15,232 nucleotides of DNA. It comes from a virus. The stretch's first letter is position 1, and each line of letters opens with the position of its first letter. The translations under genes and the position numbers were made by a program. The stretch lies in the UHGV virus genome UHGV-1764584. One strand, given 5' to 3'. Below the pieces are notes generated by a model that worked only from the letters and a program-made list of their open reading frames with translations, made no database searches and was not told where the DNA came from. Positions 3,678 to 14,913 of the stretch are shown in pieces.

Positions 3678-4189
3678 TGATGGCCCCCGTCATTTCTGGT
3701 GCTTTTCACCGTGCGGCTTCTTAAAAACCTGCCATCACGAACAACAGACACTTCTCGTTTACCCAACCTCATTTCACGGCGGTAACATTCAGAAAATGCC
3801 TCGTCCGGCATCATATAAATGCGACGCTTCGCCTCCGTATCCAGAAGGGAACGGCTTGGGGTTACATATAAAAACGACTCATCAATAGGGACCAAACCAC
3901 GAGCAAGAATTGCTGGCAGAATGCCAGGAAGAACGCAGAAAACAGCTCCACGATGCAGCAACATCTGGTACTCCATGACCTCCGTTATCCCCGTGACTAC
4001 TGTTACGGTGTCACGTCTGTTACGGCTGGCAACCAGTCGCTGCACACGTCCAATTTTCTGATCTACAGATAGATGTTTGCTATCGTTATCAATATGATCG
4101 ATAACAAATCCTTTAATCGTTTGATCAAGGTAGTGCACCACCTTCGATTGAATCTGGTGATTATCACCAAAGAAGGCCAGAATCATCAT
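3674..4189 (-). CDS. Hypothetical phage early-operon protein (171 aa)
   Basis: Intact ORF with ATGA overlaps to both neighbours. Possibly a nin-region DUF but not recognised with confidence. Confidence 0.45.
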   Translation of the reverse strand: MMILAFFGDNHQIQSKVVHYLDQTIKGFVIDHIDNDSKHLSVDQKIGRVQRLVASRNRRDTVTVVTGITEVMEYQMLLHRGAVFCVLPGILPAILARGLVPIDESFLYVTPSRSLLDTEAKRRIYMMPDEAFSECYRREMRLGKREVSVVRDGRFLRSRTVKSTRNDGGHQ

Positions 4190-4680
4190 TCCTCAAGCCT
4201 CCCAAGTGCTGAACGCCGGGCGTTGCTAATCTCCTTATGAATCAGCTCGATATCGCTGGAATCTTTATTCTTAAACTCCAGCATGGCAATCGCATCACGA
4301 ACCTCTGAAACGGTTACGTGTGAGTGTTTCCAGCGAGCAATGAATCGCGGACCGCGTAGATTGCAACGCTCCGCAGGCATCCCCAGCTCAGAGAAAACCG
4401 CTTTCAGCCTTGATAAGCAGTTAACAGGGAGATTCCCTTTGATCTTGTTCTGCCGAACCGATGTGCCATCGCTACGCTGGCGCTGACGTTCGGCAAAATC
4501 TGCCGCCCATTGCTGGACGTTAATCCGGCCTTCCGAATACGCCACCAGCAGCGTCAGGTTATCCGCACGAGGGAATCTCTCGAAGCGATACCAGGCACCA
4601 ATCAGTGATGACGTAAAGCCAAACTTTCTGGCAACACCAATTTGGCCTCCATTTTCGTCAACCCACTCCTGAAAGGTCAT
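4186..4680 (-). CDS. Cro/CII-like HTH DNA-binding protein with C-terminal extension, first gene of the early operon
   Basis: N-terminal GGQIGVARKFGFTSSLIGAWYRFERFPRADNLTLLVAYSEG resembles the lambda CII-type HTH. GGAG lies 9 nt upstream of the ATG. Divergent from the cI-like gene across the operator region. Confidence 0.5.
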   Translation of the reverse strand: MTFQEWVDENGGQIGVARKFGFTSSLIGAWYRFERFPRADNLTLLVAYSEGRINVQQWAADFAERQRQRSDGTSVRQNKIKGNLPVNCLSRLKAVFSELGMPAERCNLRGPRFIARWKHSHVTVSEVRDAIAMLEFKNKDSSDIELIHKEISNARRSALGRLEE

Positions 4681-4853: not shown

Positions 4854-5510
4854 ATGAAAAGCAACGACGAGAACATCAAGAAAGAAATAGGTCTGCGCAT
4901 TCAGACTCTACGGAAACAATCCGGCATGACTGCCGGAGATCTCCAGCAAGTCACTGGAATAGGCTTAAGCACCTTGCAGAACTATGAGGCCGGATTAAGA
5001 CAACCATCTATACCTGCCATCAAGAAAATCGCGCACGCCCTGAAAGCATCAGCGCCTTATATCGCGTGCTTAACAGATAACCCGTTCCCACCCCAGAATA
5101 CTAACGCTCCTGTTATTCCTGGGCTTGTAGCTATAAAAAATGACATAGCATCGCACGCCGGAGAAAAGCCAGTGCTGGCGATAGAACAGGAGATTCTACG
5201 AAGCAAGAACATCAACCCATCGTCTCTGTCAGTTCTCCAGAGCAACGATGAGTTAATGTCACCAACAATATCCCCTGGCTCCCAAGTCCTGATTAATACA
5301 GACGATACAGAGATTCATGAGGGGATCTATGCCCTTGAAGACAGAAATGGCCTGGTTGTTTTGAGGCACTGTAGAGTCATACCGGGTGACAATGCTGTTA
5401 TGCTGTCAACCGAAAGGGATGCTGAAATGAACACTAAGCATCTGAATAACGAGGAATTTAAGCGTTATAAAGTTCTTGGCCGCGTAGTTAGTGTTGTCAA
5501 CTGGTTATGA
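4854..5510 (+). CDS. cI-like repressor (XRE-type HTH plus LexA/S24-like C-terminal domain)
   Basis: N-terminal HTH (IGLRIQTLRKQSGMTAGDLQQVTGIGLSTLQNYEAG). C-terminal domain shows the S24-like pattern (GIYALEDRNGLVVLR...VLGRVVSV). Confidence 0.8.
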   Translation: MKSNDENIKKEIGLRIQTLRKQSGMTAGDLQQVTGIGLSTLQNYEAGLRQPSIPAIKKIAHALKASAPYIACLTDNPFPPQNTNAPVIPGLVAIKNDIASHAGEKPVLAIEQEILRSKNINPSSLSVLQSNDELMSPTISPGSQVLINTDDTEIHEGIYALEDRNGLVVLRHCRVIPGDNAVMLSTERDAEMNTKHLNNEEFKRYKVLGRVVSVVNWL

Positions 5511-6103: not shown

Positions 6104-6127
6104 ACCAAACACATGGAGTCTCGACAA

Positions 6128-6781
6128 ATGACTATCTCTGTAGGTATTTTCAACGGAAAAGGCGGCGTAACCAAATCAACAATTGCCCGTGCTTTAGCAG
6201 TTGCTTATGCAAAGGCTGGCTGGAATGTATGCCTGATCGATATGGATGTGCTTAACGGAACGGTAACGCGTTGGGTACAACGCAGAATGGCCAACAATAT
6301 CGAACCAGCAATCGCGGCGCAGCCGTGCGGCACACCATCACAAGTCCAGAAAATCATCGAATCAGAAGTATACGACCTGGTTATCGTCGATGGCGGTGCC
6401 TACGCATCTGAATCAGTACCGAAGCTCTCTGAATTTCTGGATATGGTTATTTTGCCAACCAGATTCTCTACCGATGACCTGGAAACCACCGTTAACACAG
6501 CTCACGGCATCGTTAAAAAGGGTGTACCAATCAAGAAAATTTGCATGGTGTTTTCCGGCGCGGCTGAAAACGAAGCTGACTATATTGAAGCCCAAGAGTA
6601 CCTGGCTAATACGCCATACTTTGTTGTCGATAAGTACATTCCCCACAAGCCAGCTCTGAGCAAAGCTCAGGATAAGGGCTTAAGCCTCATTGAGTGCTCA
6701 TACGTTGCGCCACGCAAAAAGGCAGACGACGTTATTCAGGGGATTATCAACCAGCTTGAGGCTCTGACTACTGCCGCGTAA
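6128..6781 (+). CDS. parA: ParA-family partition ATPase (small ParF-type)
   Basis: Deviant Walker A GKGGVTKST, Walker A' LIDMD, and VIVDGGAYAS hydrophobic motif. Start chosen at ATG 6128 (GGAG at 6115-6118, 9-nt spacing); the ORF track's 6113 start is 5 codons longer. Confidence 0.8.
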   Translation: MTISVGIFNGKGGVTKSTIARALAVAYAKAGWNVCLIDMDVLNGTVTRWVQRRMANNIEPAIAAQPCGTPSQVQKIIESEVYDLVIVDGGAYASESVPKLSEFLDMVILPTRFSTDDLETTVNTAHGIVKKGVPIKKICMVFSGAAENEADYIEAQEYLANTPYFVVDKYIPHKPALSKAQDKGLSLIECSYVAPRKKADDVIQGIINQLEALTTAA

Positions 6782-6812
6782 TATATAATTATAGTTTTAT
6801 AGATTTATATAA
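6781..6812. repeat. AT-rich box between parA and the parG-like gene
   Basis: ATATATAATTATAGTTTTATAGATTTATATAA, carrying the same TATAGATTTATATAA core as 6008-6022. Confidence 0.5.
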
Positions 6813-6824
6813 GAGGGGATACAC

Positions 6825-7073
6825 ATGGCCGCACCATCAAAACCACCAAAGAAGAACAGCAAAGGCGTACCGCCATCGATCGAACAACCGCAGGTTTTCG
6901 ACCCGACTGAAACGCCAACCAGAACCAAATCAGGTGGGGCACAAATGGCGTTTAACGTCGACCCTGAATTTAAACGCGAGTACAAAACGTTCGCCAGCTC
7001 AATGGATATGTCATTGAAAGAAGTGCTGACAAAATCTTTTGAGTTACTCAAGGCTCAATACAACCAGAAGTAA
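6825..7073 (+). CDS. ParG-like ribbon-helix-helix partition/centromere-binding protein (82 aa)
   Basis: Directly downstream of parA with an AAGAGGGG RBS. Basic, Pro-rich, likely disordered N-terminal tail, then MAFNVDPEFKREYKTFASSMDMSLKEVLTKSFELLKAQ, a strand-helix-helix pattern comparable to TP228 ParG. Confidence 0.55.
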   Translation: MAAPSKPPKKNSKGVPPSIEQPQVFDPTETPTRTKSGGAQMAFNVDPEFKREYKTFASSMDMSLKEVLTKSFELLKAQYNQK

Positions 7074-7135
7074 GAGAAGGTGACGGCCTCCAGCGCCAAC
7101 TGTTGGCCGTCGCGACACAACAAGGGGAATTTGTT

Positions 7136-7285
7136 ATGTCCGAGCAACAATATACACGGTTACTGAAAACTCGTCTAACCGACCTCAAACGGCTGCAAGC
7201 TGGTCGCTTATTTGCCCTGCTATCCACCAGGCCAGAATGGGTACGTGAAGCAGTTCTGAAAGGCTTAATGCGCTCCAGCGTTTAA
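7136..7285 (+). CDS. Small hypothetical ORF (49 aa)
   Basis: ATG with a GGGGAA RBS, basic helical peptide. No homology recognised; could be non-coding. Confidence 0.25.
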   Translation: MSEQQYTRLLKTRLTDLKRLQAGRLFALLSTRPEWVREAVLKGLMRSSV

Positions 7286-7294
7286 ATTCAACCA

Positions 7295-7318
7295 TAAAAA
7301 AGGCCCCCGAAGGGGCCT
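7295..7318 (-). terminator. Rho-independent terminator oriented for minus-strand transcription
   Basis: Stem AGGCCCC/GGGGCCT (7301-7307 with 7312-7318) and loop CGAA. The A-run at 7295-7300 gives a U-run after the hairpin on the minus-strand RNA. Confidence 0.55.
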
Positions 7319-7323
7319 AATCG

Positions 7324-7446
7324 CTACTTGCTGCTAATGTTTATCGTCACATTCAGAGCGTTATCAGTAATCTTCCAACCCTCCCCATGTGGCGTAAACA
7401 AAGCTCCAGTAACAACGATAAAAATACACATACAGTATTTTTTCAT
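7324..7446 (-). CDS. Candidate 40-aa hydrophobic peptide (MKKYCMCIFIVVTGALFTPHGEGWKITDNALNVTINISSK)
   Basis: ATG at 7446 with AAGGG 7 nt upstream; the SD sits in a GGCC...GGCC hairpin. N-terminal hydrophobic segment. Ends just before the terminator at 7295-7318. The ORF track's 60-aa version begins at a non-ATG codon upstream. Confidence 0.35.
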   Translation of the reverse strand: MKKYCMCIFIVVTGALFTPHGEGWKITDNALNVTINISSK

Positions 7447-7677
7447 TGTATGGCCCTTACAGGCCGTTTCACGACATCCCCACCGACGAAAACAACGCGA
7501 GAGCAAGCACGGCTGCTTGTGCTTGCATGTACGGCAACAGGAAATCCTCCCCTAAAGTCGGTGCCCGGGTGCGAATCGGCGGGAAGGTCCACAGGTATTT
7601 TACGATTATTTTAAGATTAGTAATAGGAAAGAAATTAAACGAAAAAAACAGTTTATTTTCACAAAATCAGTAACCTA

Positions 7678-7733
7678 CCCACAATCTGTGAGTTTGCTGA
7701 CACAACAAGAACCACAATTTTTTGATGTATAAT
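7678..7733 (+). promoter_or_regulatory. Operator-like sites and -10 element upstream of the candidate sRNA / antirepressor operon
   Basis: O6 at 7678-7692 (CCCACA-ATC-TGTGAG, close to O2) and half-site O7 at 7711-7716. TATAAT at 7728-7733 is preceded directly by TG. Confidence 0.45.
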
Positions 7734-7738
7734 AGTGG

Positions 7739-7870
7739 ACTATTATTACCTTTTGAGTAAAATCAATTTGCTGCTTGTGCTTGCGTGGTTGTTTATACAA
7801 CAACGTAATGCTGAAAGGACCGCGAATCCGATCAGCACGAAAGAACCGTCCTCAATAGGGCGGTTTTTTT
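7739..7870 (+). ncRNA. Candidate small RNA / terminated leader (about 130 nt)
   Basis: Runs from the TATAAT promoter to a terminator at 7844-7870 (stem AACCGUCC/GGGCGGUU with one G-U pair, loop UCAAUA, then U7). Positions 7770-7787 are complementary to the minus-strand RNA at 7512-7529. Internal hairpin GTTGTT-TATAC-AACAAC at 7788-7804. Confidence 0.35.
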
Positions 7871-8017
7871 GTTTCTGCCTACCAATAAACCCACGCTATG
7901 TGGTTGTCTCTGTTAAAATCCCGCCGTATTGACATGAATGCGCCATTGGTGGACACTTTCCGAGCCGTAGCAAAATCTACGGTCGGGATTGGAACCCCGT
8001 AGACACAATGGCGCATA

Positions 8018-8040
8018 CCGCGTTAGCGGTTTTTTTATGC
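8018..8040 (+). terminator. Second short terminator-like hairpin in the antirepressor leader
   Basis: ACCGC-GTTA-GCGGT followed by T7. A GATTGGAACC 10-mer is repeated at 7988-7997 and 8150-8159. Confidence 0.3.
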
Positions 8041-8202
8041 GTAAAGCACTGCTACACCCAAATTATGGTGGGGCGTGCGGGGGAGTCGTAAGACTCGCCG
8101 GTTCGTCATTGTGTCCGGTAGTTCCAACCCTGCACGTCTCACCACCCAATGATTGGAACCTGACGGTGGTGAGTATCCTTAACCTTTAAGGGAATCATCA
8201 CA

Positions 8203-8394
8203 ATGACAAACCTACCCCATGACTATTACGTCAACCTCGTAAAGATCCTTCTCAAGAAAGCCTCATACGCCGATAAATTACGCCTGGCTGAAATCATCGA
8301 GCGCGAAGCTATGCGCATCGCCAGCAACGATAACGCTGTTTCTGACGCAAAAATCTCCCTCGTAACCAAAGTTGTTATGGGAGGTGCAAAATGA
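8203..8394 (+). CDS. Small protein (63 aa) translationally coupled to the antirepressor gene
   Basis: AAGGGAA RBS; its stop overlaps the antirepressor ATG (ATGA at 8391). Occupies the position that icd has in P1 immI. No sequence family recognised. Confidence 0.5.
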   Translation: MTNLPHDYYVNLVKILLKKASYADKLRLAEIIEREAMRIASNDNAVSDAKISLVTKVVMGGAK

Positions 8395-9542
8395 AAACGC
8401 TTCCGACCGTTAACACCCTACAGCCTATCCTGCATAATCAGATTCCAGTAATCACAACTGAGCTACTCGCCCGCCTTTATGGAACAGAAGCAATCCGTAT
8501 ACAGCAAAATCACCATGAAAATAAAACTCGGTTCATTGAGGGGAAGCACTTCTTTAAAGCTGTTGGTGATGAACTCAAAAATTTGCGACTAGTTTTAAAC
8601 GAGTCACAAAATGAGGTGCAAATTTCCCCCAAAACTCGCTCTCTCATCCTCTGGACAGAACGCGGGGCTGCACGTCACGCCAAAATGCTTGAAACTAACC
8701 AAGCGTGGGATGTGTTCGAACGGCTGGAAGACTGCTATTTCAACCAGAACGCGCAAACGGCCGCGACCGTAACCGTCTCACCAAACAATGCTCGTGAGGT
8801 TGTCGATACGCTCAACGCCAAACCGATGTTTTACATTAAAGTGTGCAACAACGAGCCACTCACAACCTCAGCCGATGTTGCCCAGGCATTCAGCACCACA
8901 AACAATTCCATCGTTATGGCCATCGATGCGTTACGCATTCCTCGCACAGCTGCGGCGCGTCATTTCTTTAAAGAGCAACGACCGTTGGAAGGAAGCGACC
9001 GCGAAATAACAATCTATCGCATGACAAAAGACGGATTTACCTTGCTCATGGAAAGTATCGACGGTCCAGGCGTGAAGGATATCAAGCTGGCCTACATTGA
9101 AGCCTTTAACGCTATCAGCAGCGTGTTAAAAACACAGTACGAGCGCGATCTGGCTAAACGACTGTACCAGGAAAAAACGATTATCCGCGCGGCAACAGAG
9201 CATAATCGGCTATTAACGGAACCGAACTACAGGAAGGAACTAATCAAGGAGTTTGACAAGGCAACAGGGAAAACCAAAGCGGCGCTAAGTCTGCCAGCAA
9301 TGACTCAGGAAAATGTGATATCAGCCTTACTTCTTGATCTGCTCAGAAACGCCAGAGCACTTATCAGCTTTGACGAAAACCTGAATCCTCAGCTCAAGCT
9401 ACTACCACCGACAGGCAAAGTAGTCGACCAGGCTGATCACAACAGCATACTCAGCGTACTGGATGCAAACCTGCCAGCCAGGACACTACAGGATCTGATA
9501 AAAACATGTGCTGATAAGCTGGCACAGAAAAGCAGACCATAA
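8391..9542 (+). CDS. Phage antirepressor (N-terminal ORF6N domain plus Rha/AntA-like domain)
   Basis: N-terminal IPVITTELLARLYGTEAIRIQQNHHENKTRFIEGKHFFK...LILWTERGAARHAKMLETNQAWDVFERLEDCYF is a classic ORF6N pattern. Middle PLTTSADVAQAFSTTNNSIVMAIDAL is Rha/AntA-like. Confidence 0.8.
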   Translation: MKTLPTVNTLQPILHNQIPVITTELLARLYGTEAIRIQQNHHENKTRFIEGKHFFKAVGDELKNLRLVLNESQNEVQISPKTRSLILWTERGAARHAKMLETNQAWDVFERLEDCYFNQNAQTAATVTVSPNNAREVVDTLNAKPMFYIKVCNNEPLTTSADVAQAFSTTNNSIVMAIDALRIPRTAAARHFFKEQRPLEGSDREITIYRMTKDGFTLLMESIDGPGVKDIKLAYIEAFNAISSVLKTQYERDLAKRLYQEKTIIRAATEHNRLLTEPNYRKELIKEFDKATGKTKAALSLPAMTQENVISALLLDLLRNARALISFDENLNPQLKLLPPTGKVVDQADHNSILSVLDANLPARTLQDLIKTCADKLAQKSRP

Positions 9543-11798: not shown

Positions 11799-12098
11799 TC
11801 AGATGTTAAACGCTATTCGTTTTCCTGTGGGAAGCTCAACATCCAGGCTTAATTTGCCTCCCATAGCTTCAACGTAACGCTTTAATGTCGCCAGCTTTAA
11901 ATCATTTCCGCGCTGCTCCAGCTTTGTTACTGCTGGCTGGCTTATACCCATCGCCTCAGCAACCTGTTTTTGTGATAACTGGAGTTCTTCACGCATCATC
12001 TGCAAGCCGACCTCAAGAATCATCTCATCTGCCATTTCTTTAATTCGCGCCTGGCTTTCCGGTGAACGGCTGGCAATCGCCTCATCTAATGTTCTCAT
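11799..12098 (-). CDS. HigA-like HTH antitoxin (addiction-module antidote, XRE family)
   Basis: 99 aa with HTH (LSQKQVAEAMGISQPAVTKLEQ). Overlaps the upstream toxin gene by 1 nt; toxin-first order is typical of HigBA. Confidence 0.6.
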   Translation of the reverse strand: MRTLDEAIASRSPESQARIKEMADEMILEVGLQMMREELQLSQKQVAEAMGISQPAVTKLEQRGNDLKLATLKRYVEAMGGKLSLDVELPTGKRIAFNI

Positions 12099-12451
12099 TA
12101 CTTGCTCTCCAGTGTGTTCAGATGTGCTGCAAACTCATCCTCAGCTATACGCACCAGTTTTTCATAAAACCGCTTATCGTTACTTTTGTCTCCTGCACAA
12201 AGAACGATGGCCCGGCGAATCGGATCGAACGCATAAAAGGCTCTTATCGGACGGCCAGAAAACTGAACGCGAAGCTCTTTCATATTTTTGTACCGAGAAC
12301 CTTTTACGGTATCGGCATATGGCCTGGGTAACTCAGGTCCGTAAACCTGTAGCTTTTTCAAATCAGCCAAAACCTTTTCCTGAAGAGCGTCTTCTTGCTC
12401 ATTTAGCCAGTCGTCAAATCGCTGGCTAAAAAGTACCGTCCACATGCTCAA
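12098..12451 (-). CDS. RelE/ParE-superfamily toxin, HigB-like (addiction-module killer protein)
   Basis: 117 aa; the motif AIVLCAGDKSNDKRFYEKLVRIAEDEF matches the recalled LLCGGDKS pattern of these toxins. AGGA RBS. Confidence 0.6.
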   Translation of the reverse strand: MSMWTVLFSQRFDDWLNEQEDALQEKVLADLKKLQVYGPELPRPYADTVKGSRYKNMKELRVQFSGRPIRAFYAFDPIRRAIVLCAGDKSNDKRFYEKLVRIAEDEFAAHLNTLESK

Positions 12452-13906: not shown

Positions 13907-14755
13907 TTAATGTTGGAGTGATTTCCAGGTCTTTCTTAGCCTGTTATAACGCTGCTCAACGAGGGAGCGTAAATATGCAAGGTCAGCACCAGGATACATG
14001 CCATCAGCAAATTCCTGGCTAACCTCTCTAGTGATTTGATGGCGAAGTTCGGCCTCTCCCTTTTCCTGAACAAGACGCGCAGCTCTCTCCGCTGCTTTCT
14101 GTTTTGCCTTTATCTCTCTGGCCGTCTTCCTCTGACGCCATACATTCTCCATCTGCTCCTGAATAACAATACGCTTATAATCAGCCTCCGTTATCGCTTT
14201 TTTAAGCCGTTCGCTATTCTTCGCATTGAAGTAATTAAGTTTCTGGCTAACCGCACGTCTCCATGCTTGTTCAGTAATACCAACTGTTTCCAGCAGTTGA
14301 TCACGAATCTCGATTTTCGCTGGCCAATACTGTTTATTCACCCGATCCCAGCGACGTTCATAATCAATAAAACCTAACTCTTTCAGTTGCGACAACGCCC
14401 TTGTACAGCGCGTTATAGACTTGTTCCCAGCTTCGGATACGGTAGACAGGCCGCAAAAATCAGCCAACGCCTCAGCACTGGCCAGAACCCGCTTAGAAAT
14501 GATGTTTACATGGTGCAAAATCGCAGCAATCACAGCATTAATCGCCCGACGACGATGCTCGTTTATCCGGCGTTTCCGCTCTGACGGTTGATTAACGTAG
14601 AACGCAACCTCACACGTAAGATCACGACCATTAATGCGCTGTAAAGCATCAGATAACACCAGCGGCAGCTTGTGCGTATGGTGCTTTGGAGGCTGGAACT
14701 CCGGCGACAAATTACAAACGTAAGCTGAACGTAGAGACGGCATTGGTCTATCCAT
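13907..14755 (-). CDS. repA: IncFII-family replication initiator RepA1
   Basis: RRRAINAVIAAILHH...VLASAEALADFCGLSTVSEAGNKSITRCTRALSQLKELGFIDYERRWD aligns by eye with R100/R1 RepA1. Start set at the internal Met (MDRPMPS), giving 282 aa against about 285 for RepA1; the open frame extends to 14899. Confidence 0.8.
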   Translation of the reverse strand: MDRPMPSLRSAYVCNLSPEFQPPKHHTHKLPLVLSDALQRINGRDLTCEVAFYVNQPSERKRRINEHRRRAINAVIAAILHHVNIISKRVLASAEALADFCGLSTVSEAGNKSITRCTRALSQLKELGFIDYERRWDRVNKQYWPAKIEIRDQLLETVGITEQAWRRAVSQKLNYFNAKNSERLKKAITEADYKRIVIQEQMENVWRQRKTAREIKAKQKAAERAARLVQEKGEAELRHQITREVSQEFADGMYPGADLAYLRSLVEQRYNRLRKTWKSLQH

Positions 14756-14765
14756 ATGTTCGCTC

Positions 14766-14882
14766 TTGCGTCCACGGAAAACCAACGTATAATGGGAGTT
14801 GTCGAGGCGCCCATGGTTAGTTGTTGGTTTTCCTTTCCGTGGATGTCGCAAGAAGCCCGCAGATTTATCTGCGGGCTTTTTG
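14766..14882 (+). ncRNA. CopA-like antisense RNA with its promoter, opposite the repA leader
   Basis: -35 TTGCGT (14766-14771), 16 bp, -10 TATAAT (14788-14793). Terminator stem AAGCCCGCAGA/TCTGCGGGCTT (14853-14878) followed by TTTTTGTTT. The RNA would be about 83 nt, complementary to the region 45-130 nt upstream of the repA start. Confidence 0.55.
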
Positions 14883-14913
14883 TTTCCATATCTGGTCACT
14901 TTTCAACCAGACA

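Follow-up and report, generated by a model that had tools for sequence, protein, structure and literature searches.

The stretch of DNA analysed here (the window) comprises 15,232 nt of UHGV virus genome UHGV-1764584, and between positions 7296 and 7871 it carries two divergently oriented transcription units that very probably constitute a diverged timPR type I toxin–antitoxin (TA) system, with the regulatory mechanism of timPR, residing on a phage-plasmid of ~48 kb. The RNA ryfA, at first described as non-coding, was later shown to be the messenger for TimP, a toxic protein of 38 aa in the inner membrane (Andresen et al., mBio 2020, PMC7667032); in E. coli K-12 the components are annotated as timR (b4811, 100 nt), ryfA (b4440) and timP (b4812). 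The homology of both RNAs and of the encoded peptide, the position at which the RNAs pair, the compensatory changes and the structural elements of the mRNA are established here, and toxicity, membrane targeting and translational repression are presumed by analogy with the work in Salmonella and E. coli. The system is of a known kind, and what is new is a diverged and unannotated member that forms part of the backbone of a phage-plasmid family and has natural variants of the recognition helix.

In the mechanism that we propose, the minus strand would give rise to a timP mRNA of ~297 nt, with a 146-nt leader predicted to fold into four stem-loops (SL1–SL4), the last of which would hold the Shine-Dalgarno (SD) sequence. 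Translation of the 40-aa, putatively membrane-targeted peptide would require both a pseudoknot between sites 1 and 3 and a pairing of site 2 with site 4 that opens SL4. The 5' 18 nt of a TimR-like small RNA (sRNA) of ~100 nt would anneal to SL2, on its 5' arm and its loop (mRNA nt 64–81). For Salmonella, TimR pairing is known to disrupt the active pseudoknot conformation and to block timP translation.

The two RNAs and the encoded peptide

The minus-strand unit contains the following features.

7296..7592, minus strand: timP (ryfA) mRNA, ~297 nt, with a 146-nt structured 5' untranslated region (5'UTR), a 40-codon open reading frame (ORF) and an intrinsic terminator
7597..7602, minus strand: candidate timP -10 element, TAAAAT, with +1 at ~7592; it mirrors the TATTAT upstream of the annotated K-12 ryfA 5' end
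7324..7446, minus strand: timP ORF, 40 aa plus TAG stop, with its AUG at mRNA +147; peptide MKKYCMCIFIVVTGALFTPHGEGWKITDNALNVTINISSK
7293..7318, minus strand: timP intrinsic terminator, stem 7318–7301 plus T tail, from the terminator scan and the 3' end of the Rfam match

The RNA from 7592 to 7296 matches Rfam family RF00126 (ryfA) over the entire model (positions 1–296 of 296) with 144.5 bits (gathering threshold 80; E 9e-38); it is also matched by an nhmmer profile, and its minimum free energy (MFE) has a z-score of -4.0. Chromosomal ryfA was not reached by blastn at a distant setting with the window locus as query, and the link between the two was obtained via Rfam, a profile or the reverse query. 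The AUG at +147 compares with an ORF start at +145 in Salmonella timP (PMC7667032). Upstream of the RNA, TAAnAT (7602–7597, minus strand) is invariant across seven plasmid variants within an otherwise unalignable intergenic spacer. A first-pass annotation of the window had drawn attention to a minus-strand ORF for a 40-aa peptide with a hydrophobic N-terminus, which translation confirms, and to a terminator behind it; the terminator is present in our scan, although the region given in that annotation starts at 7324 and leaves it outside, the unit itself extending from 7592 to 7296.

The N-terminal half of the peptide is hydrophobic and resembles a signal sequence, with MKK followed by CMCIFIVVTGALF; no lipobox Cys follows the hydrophobic core, which rules out a lipoprotein. 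The motif M-K-x-x-[CY]-x-C-I-x-x-x-V-[ST]-G-A-L is common to the TimPs of the window, K-12, Kluyvera, Citrobacter, Salmonella arizonae and plasmid pGDT4. Pfam gives no match for the 40 residues, and the sole protein-family match is to NCBIfam NF040796 (toxic_TimP), over residues 1–40 of 40. By BLASTP the peptide is 36% identical to K-12 TimP (E 4e-8) and 50% identical to the pGDT4 TimP named by PGAP (E 2e-13), which is the closest peptide found and has G-x-GW-x-I...VTIN...K in common with it. All 16 copies of the locus in the phage-plasmid family (eight plasmids, the window included, one phage and seven IMG/VR contigs) retain an intact ORF. Among the seven plasmid variants the ORF differs by two synonymous changes and by Cys5 or Tyr5, a residue that also varies in chromosomal TimPs. 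A search of genome contigs with a two-sequence TimP alignment matched 96 stretches, none of which passed tblastn at E <= 1e-3, the 40-aa query being too short.

The plus-strand unit diverges from the timP promoter region.

7736..7763, plus strand: TimR-like promoter, TGGACT-16 nt-TAAAAT, from the promoter scan and conserved in the alignment
7770..7871, plus strand: TimR-like antitoxin sRNA, ~100 nt, with a 5' pairing region (7770–7787), two hairpins and a terminator
7781–7808, plus strand: sRNA hairpin 1
7809–7837, plus strand: sRNA hairpin 2, UGCUGA...CCGCGAA...UCAGCA, conserved
7838–7871, plus strand: sRNA terminator

The promoter is kept as TGGAC[T/A]-16-TAA[A/G]A in seven of seven plasmid variants and forms an island in the otherwise unalignable spacer, and we therefore place the sRNA start at ~7770, the first base of the repeat described below, giving a length of ~100 nt as for K-12 timR. 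The terminated plus-strand RNA of the first-pass annotation does exist as a predicted transcript; its length of ~130 nt, counted from a TATAAT at 7728–7733 that is deleted in two of the seven variants, is probably off by ~30 nt. The predicted fold of a 5' tail, two hairpins and a terminator has a z-score of -6.1, and alignment of the RNA with the TimRs of K-12, E. ruysiae, Shigella, two Kluyvera species and C. youngae shows that its architecture is the same as theirs. Hairpin 2 is kept across TimRs as UGCUG[G/A]...CCGCGAA...CAGCA, with GC to AU compensatory pairs in the plasmid branch. We conclude from these sequence comparisons that the plus-strand sRNA is a homologue of TimR, beyond a mere analogue. 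TimR is not represented among the Rfam families, where K-12 timR itself goes unmatched; the best sub-threshold match is RNAI (26.7 bits against a threshold of 47). A search of viral contigs with a TimR-core pattern returned 42 loci, of which 34 are chance matches in coding sequence and eight belong to this phage-plasmid family.

Pairing and leader structure

The window contains two exact copies of the 15-mer GCTGCTTGTGCTTGC, at 7512–7526 and 7770–7784 and both on the plus strand, and no third site was found on either strand of the whole window at up to two mismatches. Dinucleotide-preserving shuffles contain a mean of 0.07 matches each, and none of 200 has two or more. In the repeat search the copies extend to 18 nt with a single A/G difference, which becomes a G-U pair because the RNAs come from opposite strands; this is the repeat with one G-U position that had been noticed at the outset; its two exact copies are borne out, and it is non-random.

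7512..7529, minus strand: TimR-binding site, repeat copy 1, mRNA nt 64–81, CAUGCAAGCACAAGCAGC, in the 5' arm and loop of SL2
7770–7787, plus strand: repeat copy 2, 5' pairing region of the sRNA

The sRNA is trans-encoded, the copies lying 258 nt apart, and sRNA nt 1–18 and mRNA nt 64–81 form 15 Watson-Crick pairs, the G-U pair and two further pairs. RNAduplex (145 x 45 nt) gives -39.8 kcal/mol for the cognate RNAs, with a mean of -27.3 and a best value of -39.7 for shuffles; these energies discriminate poorly, and contiguous pairing was therefore used as the measure.

The site of pairing is the one known for timPR. The published timP leader has four stem-loops, with TimR binding SL2 and the SD trapped in SL4 (PNAS 2024, PMC11228461; NAR 2026, PMC13000454). 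A 7-bp pseudoknot between SL1 and SL3 (sites 1–3) is essential for translation (Eleftheraki & Holmqvist, PMC11228461; Eleftheraki et al., PMC13000454), and pairing of sites 2 and 4 opens SL4, whereas pairing of sites 1 and 2 locks an inactive form (PMC11228461, PMC13000454). Each of these stem-loops and sites has a counterpart in the window.

7547..7586, minus strand: SL1, mRNA nt 7–46, from the Rfam structure line and pair counts
7557–7563, minus strand: pseudoknot site 1, CACCGAC, mRNA nt 30–36, within SL1
7531..7535, minus strand: site 2, GCCGU, mRNA nt 58–62, complementary to site 4
7503..7526, minus strand: SL2, mRNA nt 67–90, an 8-bp stem GCAAGCAC/GUGCUUGC with an 8-nt loop, from RNAfold (MFE and centroid), the Rfam structure and pair counts
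7469..7500, minus strand: SL3, mRNA nt 93–124, which holds pseudoknot site 3
7481–7487, minus strand: pseudoknot site 3, GUCGGUG, mRNA nt 106–112
7463–7467, minus strand: site 4, ACGGC, mRNA nt 126–130, the 5' flank of SL4
7452..7465, minus strand: SL4, GGCCU-GUAA-GGGCC, mRNA nt 128–141, from RNAfold (MFE and centroid)

We aligned 13 leaders, five from plasmids and eight from chromosomes. Across the alignment 97.1% of cells are paired, compared with 38–47% when the partners are slid by 1–3 columns. SL4 is 100% paired, with UA to CG covariation, and the SD AAGGG (7454–7458) sits in its loop and 3' arm; the burial of the SD in a GGCC...GGCC hairpin had been predicted, and RNAfold reproduces it at mRNA nt 128–141, where it is a published hallmark of timPR. 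Sites 1 and 3 can form seven Watson-Crick pairs that are likewise 100% paired in all 13 leaders, and three of the seven are changed on both sides (CGCUGGC/GCCAGUG in K-12 and CACCGGA/UCCGGUG in pGDT4). The 5 bp between sites 2 and 4 are also 100% paired, against 28–57% in slid controls. For sites 1 and 2, inspection by eye gives 4-bp candidates only, either UGCC (nt 57–60) with GGCA (nt 28–31) or GUUG (nt 55–58) with CGAC (nt 33–36). These natural variants add covariation support to the published pseudoknot and site 2–4 interactions. The locus of Salmonella enterica arizonae was excluded from the structure alignment, as it matches model positions 34–298 only and its 5' part is unalignable. At that locus (L057, 1164–1457) the profile match sets in only at model position 34, and the place expected for SL1 is overlapped by a TimR core; the locus may be rearranged or degenerate.

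The position of the pairing is conserved although its sequence is not. In K-12 mRNA nt 64–82 or 83 pair with sRNA nt 1–19 or 20, and in Shigella, E. ruysiae, three Kluyvera, C. youngae and the Yersinia and Serratia plasmids the pairing starts at mRNA nt 63–67 and extends over 17–28 nt of different sequences. Within the 16 phage-plasmid copies there are three pairing types, GCUGCUUG, GCUGUUUG and GCCGCUUG, with TimR 5' ends GCUGCUUGUGCUUGCGUG, UGCUGUUUGUGCUUGCGUGGU and UACGCCGCUUGUGCUUGCGUG; C to U and U to C changes are mirrored in both repeat copies, and all 16 loci retain 18–21 contiguous pairs. The divergent, trans-acting type I geometry suggested by the first-pass annotation, with an antisense sRNA directed at a toxin 5'UTR, is therefore supported by homology, conserved position and compensatory changes, and the repeat is indeed conserved in homologous loci. 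With the ryfA and timP identity in hand, the 18-nt pairing and the SD-trapping hairpin can be recognized as known hallmarks of timPR that had been picked out from the letters alone.

We considered whether the three types are orthogonal specificity groups, and this is ruled out by cross-pairing among them over 15–19 nt, which is asymmetric. Chromosomal E. coli and Shigella TimRs form at most nine contiguous pairs with the window timP, compared with 18 for the cognate sRNA; by this crude measure the plasmid timPR looks insulated from the host's own TimR. Between plasmid types the control region is only ~80% identical or unalignable, whereas the flanks are 95–100% identical. The hot spot of divergence, or local mosaic, spans ~7500–7790 (the 5' half of the timP leader, both promoters and the TimR 5' end) and is centred on the recognition helix; the flanks compared are 6113–7285 and 13907–14899, in the par and repA backbone, both 95–100% identical. 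In K-12 there are two TimR-like copies upstream of ryfA (2357–2456 and ~2690–2790 of the K-12 locus L002), separated by DNA that Rfam calls IS128 RNA; the distal copy, annotated as timR, is cognate (20 nt), and the proximal copy fits the timP site of the Shigella and E. ruysiae type (17 nt).

The phage-plasmid and possible roles of its timPR

The timPR locus of the window has a counterpart with 100% identity in E. fergusonii plasmid pRHB23-C02_4, and the isolated Yersinia phages vB_YpM_39, 41 and 44 (49 kb) match 92% of the window's length at 98% identity. Relatives of the element are circular, non-mobilizable plasmids of 47–52 kb from E. coli, E. albertii, E. fergusonii and Klebsiella, among them the 48.5 kb plasmid of reference strain ATCC 25922. 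The surrounding genes are as follows.

4854–5510: CI-like repressor
6113–6781: ParA
7964–8149, plus strand: isrK-like RNA (RF01394, 67.7 bits) and C4 antisense RNA (RF01695, 77.8 bits), directly after the TimR terminator
8203–8394, plus strand: 63-aa ORF
8391–9542, plus strand: ORF6N/Rha antirepressor
11799–12451, minus strand: type II TA, a Gp49/HigB-like toxin (PF05973, 81 bits) with an HTH_3 antitoxin, named RelE/ParE or HigB2 in relatives
13907–14899, minus strand: IncFII-family RepA (PF02387, 151 bits)

This gene content and the identity to the Yersinia phages indicate that the element is a phage-plasmid; its assignment to a pSLy3 group is ruled out, pSLy3 belonging to the SSU5 supergroup. 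The timPR locus lies between parA and the antirepressor module. Of 5,426 complete E. coli genomes, 72 have timPR, 71 have the adjacent par segment and 71 have repA, and from these near-equal counts we conclude that timPR is part of the backbone. The 60 PLSDB plasmid records and the complete E. coli genomes in which it occurs leave it blank in their annotation, because the PGAP model of TimP misses the peptide and TimR has no RNA family, although Rfam knows the mRNA. In the literature that could be searched, no paper links timPR or ryfA to phages, plasmids or phage-plasmids, and a search on the three Yersinia phages found nothing relevant.

Some features of the neighbourhood stand apart from timPR. 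A convergent 49-aa ORF (7136–7285, plus strand) has its stop 8 nt from the timP terminator; it has a weak match to a PHROG of unknown function (E 7e-4) and is annotated in some relatives only. The order of isrK/C4, ORF and antirepressor resembles the immI region of P1 and P7 (c4-icd-ant), here adjoining a type I TA. Type-B relatives (the ATCC 25922 plasmid, pE300082_50 and phage vB_YpM_39) have an extra minus-strand helix-turn-helix gene of 540–573 nt between the TimR terminator and isrK/C4 (L003 2056–2628, L007 2088–2627 and L008 6588–7127), which the window lacks.

With respect to function, we give close to an even chance, though somewhat less, to the proposal that a long-lived toxin mRNA and a short-lived antitoxin RNA maintain the plasmid-prophage by post-segregational killing. 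A maintenance role is favoured by the location of timPR beside parA, by its backbone status and by the finding that in Salmonella timP mRNA outlasts TimR. More tentatively, the phage-plasmid may have captured the timPR of the Yersinia and Serratia conjugative-plasmid branch as a backbone module for addiction or competition, insulated from the host TimR, a scenario that we think possible but rather doubtful. Under such a capture, the recognition helix and promoters would be the fastest-diverging part of the element, with three types and asymmetric cross-reactivity, and if true this would give timPR its first selective role in nature, and plasmid loss would offer a simple assay system for the family. 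TimPR is a well-studied model of translational control by a structural switch, for which no natural inducing condition came to light in the Salmonella work, and a backbone timPR on widespread E. coli phage-plasmids offers a setting in which to measure function, be it retention, exclusion or a link to the lysis–lysogeny decision.

Several observations weigh against the assignment to timPR or against the maintenance role. The Rfam score of 144.5 bits is under half that of K-12 ryfA (314.9), and the promoter scan shows no clear -35 element for timP. The NF040796 score of the peptide is 23.0 bits in the Cys5 form and 22.2 in the Tyr5 form, below the curated cut-off of 45, which is one model's threshold and no biological criterion; K-12 TimP scores 86.8, pGDT4 TimP just passes (47.2) and the Serratia plasmid TimP fails (41.5). 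The model thus barely reaches the mobile-element branch, so that PGAP leaves the locus blank on these plasmids and public databases list the peptide only as a 'hypothetical' or 'uncharacterized' protein. The leader structure that was scored derives from the window's own sequence, which favours it over the slid controls, and the 13 leaders represent few independent lineages; the compensatory changes likewise reflect few evolutionary events among closely related plasmids. Deletion of timR in Salmonella yields TimP from the native locus without slowing growth, so that killing after plasmid loss is not assured, and the element already carries a second TA, of the Gp49/HigB type II class.

Alternative accounts differ in how much of the timPR assignment they keep. 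The main one retains it entirely and changes the role, with timPR serving abortive infection against other phages, exclusion of related phage-plasmids or a link to the lytic switch, and TimP being set free once infection or induction lowers TimR transcription. In its favour, the element is a real phage, timPR lies directly upstream of the isrK-like and C4-like RNAs and the antirepressor module controlling lysis–lysogeny, a connection of type I toxins with phage exclusion has been drawn (PMC13000454, discussion), and a control region that is the most divergent part of a 95–100% identical backbone is expected for a trait under conflict. However, we identified neither an operator-like nor a repressor-binding element in the spacer, where the repeat search shows no inverted repeat, TimR has no other target in the window at up to two mismatches, and no defence phenotype is reported for any timPR; we regard such a role as unlikely. 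A purely regulatory function is less likely still. Papers on uropathogenic and avian pathogenic E. coli (PMC8205139, PMC10664665, PMC13188913) describe effects of the RyfA sRNA on oxidative and osmotic stress, biofilm and virulence, and on this account the minus-strand RNA would act mainly as such an sRNA, with the ORF and the antisense RNA secondary or vestigial on the element. In Salmonella, however, the protein rather than the RNA is toxic (PMC7667032), the ORF is intact in 16 of 16 copies with mostly synonymous variation, and the SD trap, pseudoknot and site 2–4 pairing, which matter only if the ORF is translated, are kept by covariation. The conservation of the ORF together with its translation-control elements makes this account improbable.

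The two remaining alternatives deny the identity or the interaction, and both have very little to recommend them. That the peptide might represent a novel family of type I toxins, with no relation to those already known, had been raised by the first-pass annotation and is in keeping with the lack of a Pfam match, the score below the TimP cut-off, the 'hypothetical protein' label and the PGAP blank. It is contradicted by the full-length ryfA match, by TimP as the sole protein family with 50% identity to an annotated TimP, and by the homology and architecture of TimR and the identical regulatory anatomy, and we consider it highly improbable. Finally, the repeat could be a chance match or recombination scar between RNAs that do not interact, to which, beyond the general occurrence of short repeats, only the weak discrimination of RNAduplex over long windows (-39.8 kcal/mol for the cognate against -39.7 for the best shuffle) lends some room; but no shuffle of 200 has two matches, the pairing occupies the homologous position in more than ten chromosomal and plasmid loci with unrelated sequences, and changes are mirrored in both copies, so that this explanation is hardly credible.

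Comparison with known systems

Hok/sok of plasmid R1, the model for a maintenance role, is alike in being a plasmid-borne small membrane toxin whose stable mRNA is opposed by an antisense RNA and has a sequestered SD. The sequences are unrelated, sok is cis-encoded and overlaps the mok leader, and hok needs 3' processing and coupling to mok, whereas timP is reported to need neither processing nor an upstream ORF (PMC11228461). In agreement with the observation that the peptide lacks the Hok-family signature, it has no Pfam match, Hok/Gef included, and no hok/sok Rfam family is found in the window. The tisB/istR-1, shoB/ohsC and zor/orz systems share the divergent trans-acting antitoxin sRNA with ~18–20 nt of complementarity to the toxin 5'UTR; their RNAs and peptides are unrelated, and their mRNAs are activated by 5' processing, in contrast to the structural switch of timP. 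Rfam OrzO-P gives only a sub-threshold 15-bit match, to the terminator.

Chromosomal timPR (PMC7667032, PMC11228461, PMC13000454) is alike in its ryfA mRNA, in an ORF of ~40 aa near +145 with a hydrophobic N-terminus, in the divergent sRNA of ~100 nt and in the 18–20 nt pairing at SL2 (mRNA nt 64–82), as well as in the SD within SL4, the 7-bp pseudoknot, the site 2–4 pairing and the CCGCGAA loop of TimR. It differs in its recognition sequence and in the loop of SL4 (UUCGCAU, compared with GUAA in the window), and it sits between sseA and sseB, whereas the window copy is on a phage-plasmid.

The plasmid systems are closer in setting. Complete timPR loci are present on pGDT4 (L067 ~3870–4290), on Serratia pJSRIV001_1 (L068) and on a Y. 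similis plasmid (L069); their TimPs are the nearest relatives found for the peptide of the window, and only the pGDT4 copy is annotated. Plasmid pGDT4 (NC_011759.1, Y. pseudotuberculosis, conjugative IncFII/MOBP) resembles the window in carrying a full timPR with a divergent TimR on a mobile element, although blastn gives no direct link between the window DNA and pGDT4-type timPR, the two being too diverged. In the pGDT4, Serratia and Y. similis plasmid copies the pairing covers 20–28 nt at mRNA nt 63, and the pseudoknot is kept by further covariation. The Yersinia and Serratia plasmids are conjugative and have timPR beside relaxase and trb genes, whereas in the window it lies on a non-mobilizable element beside parA.

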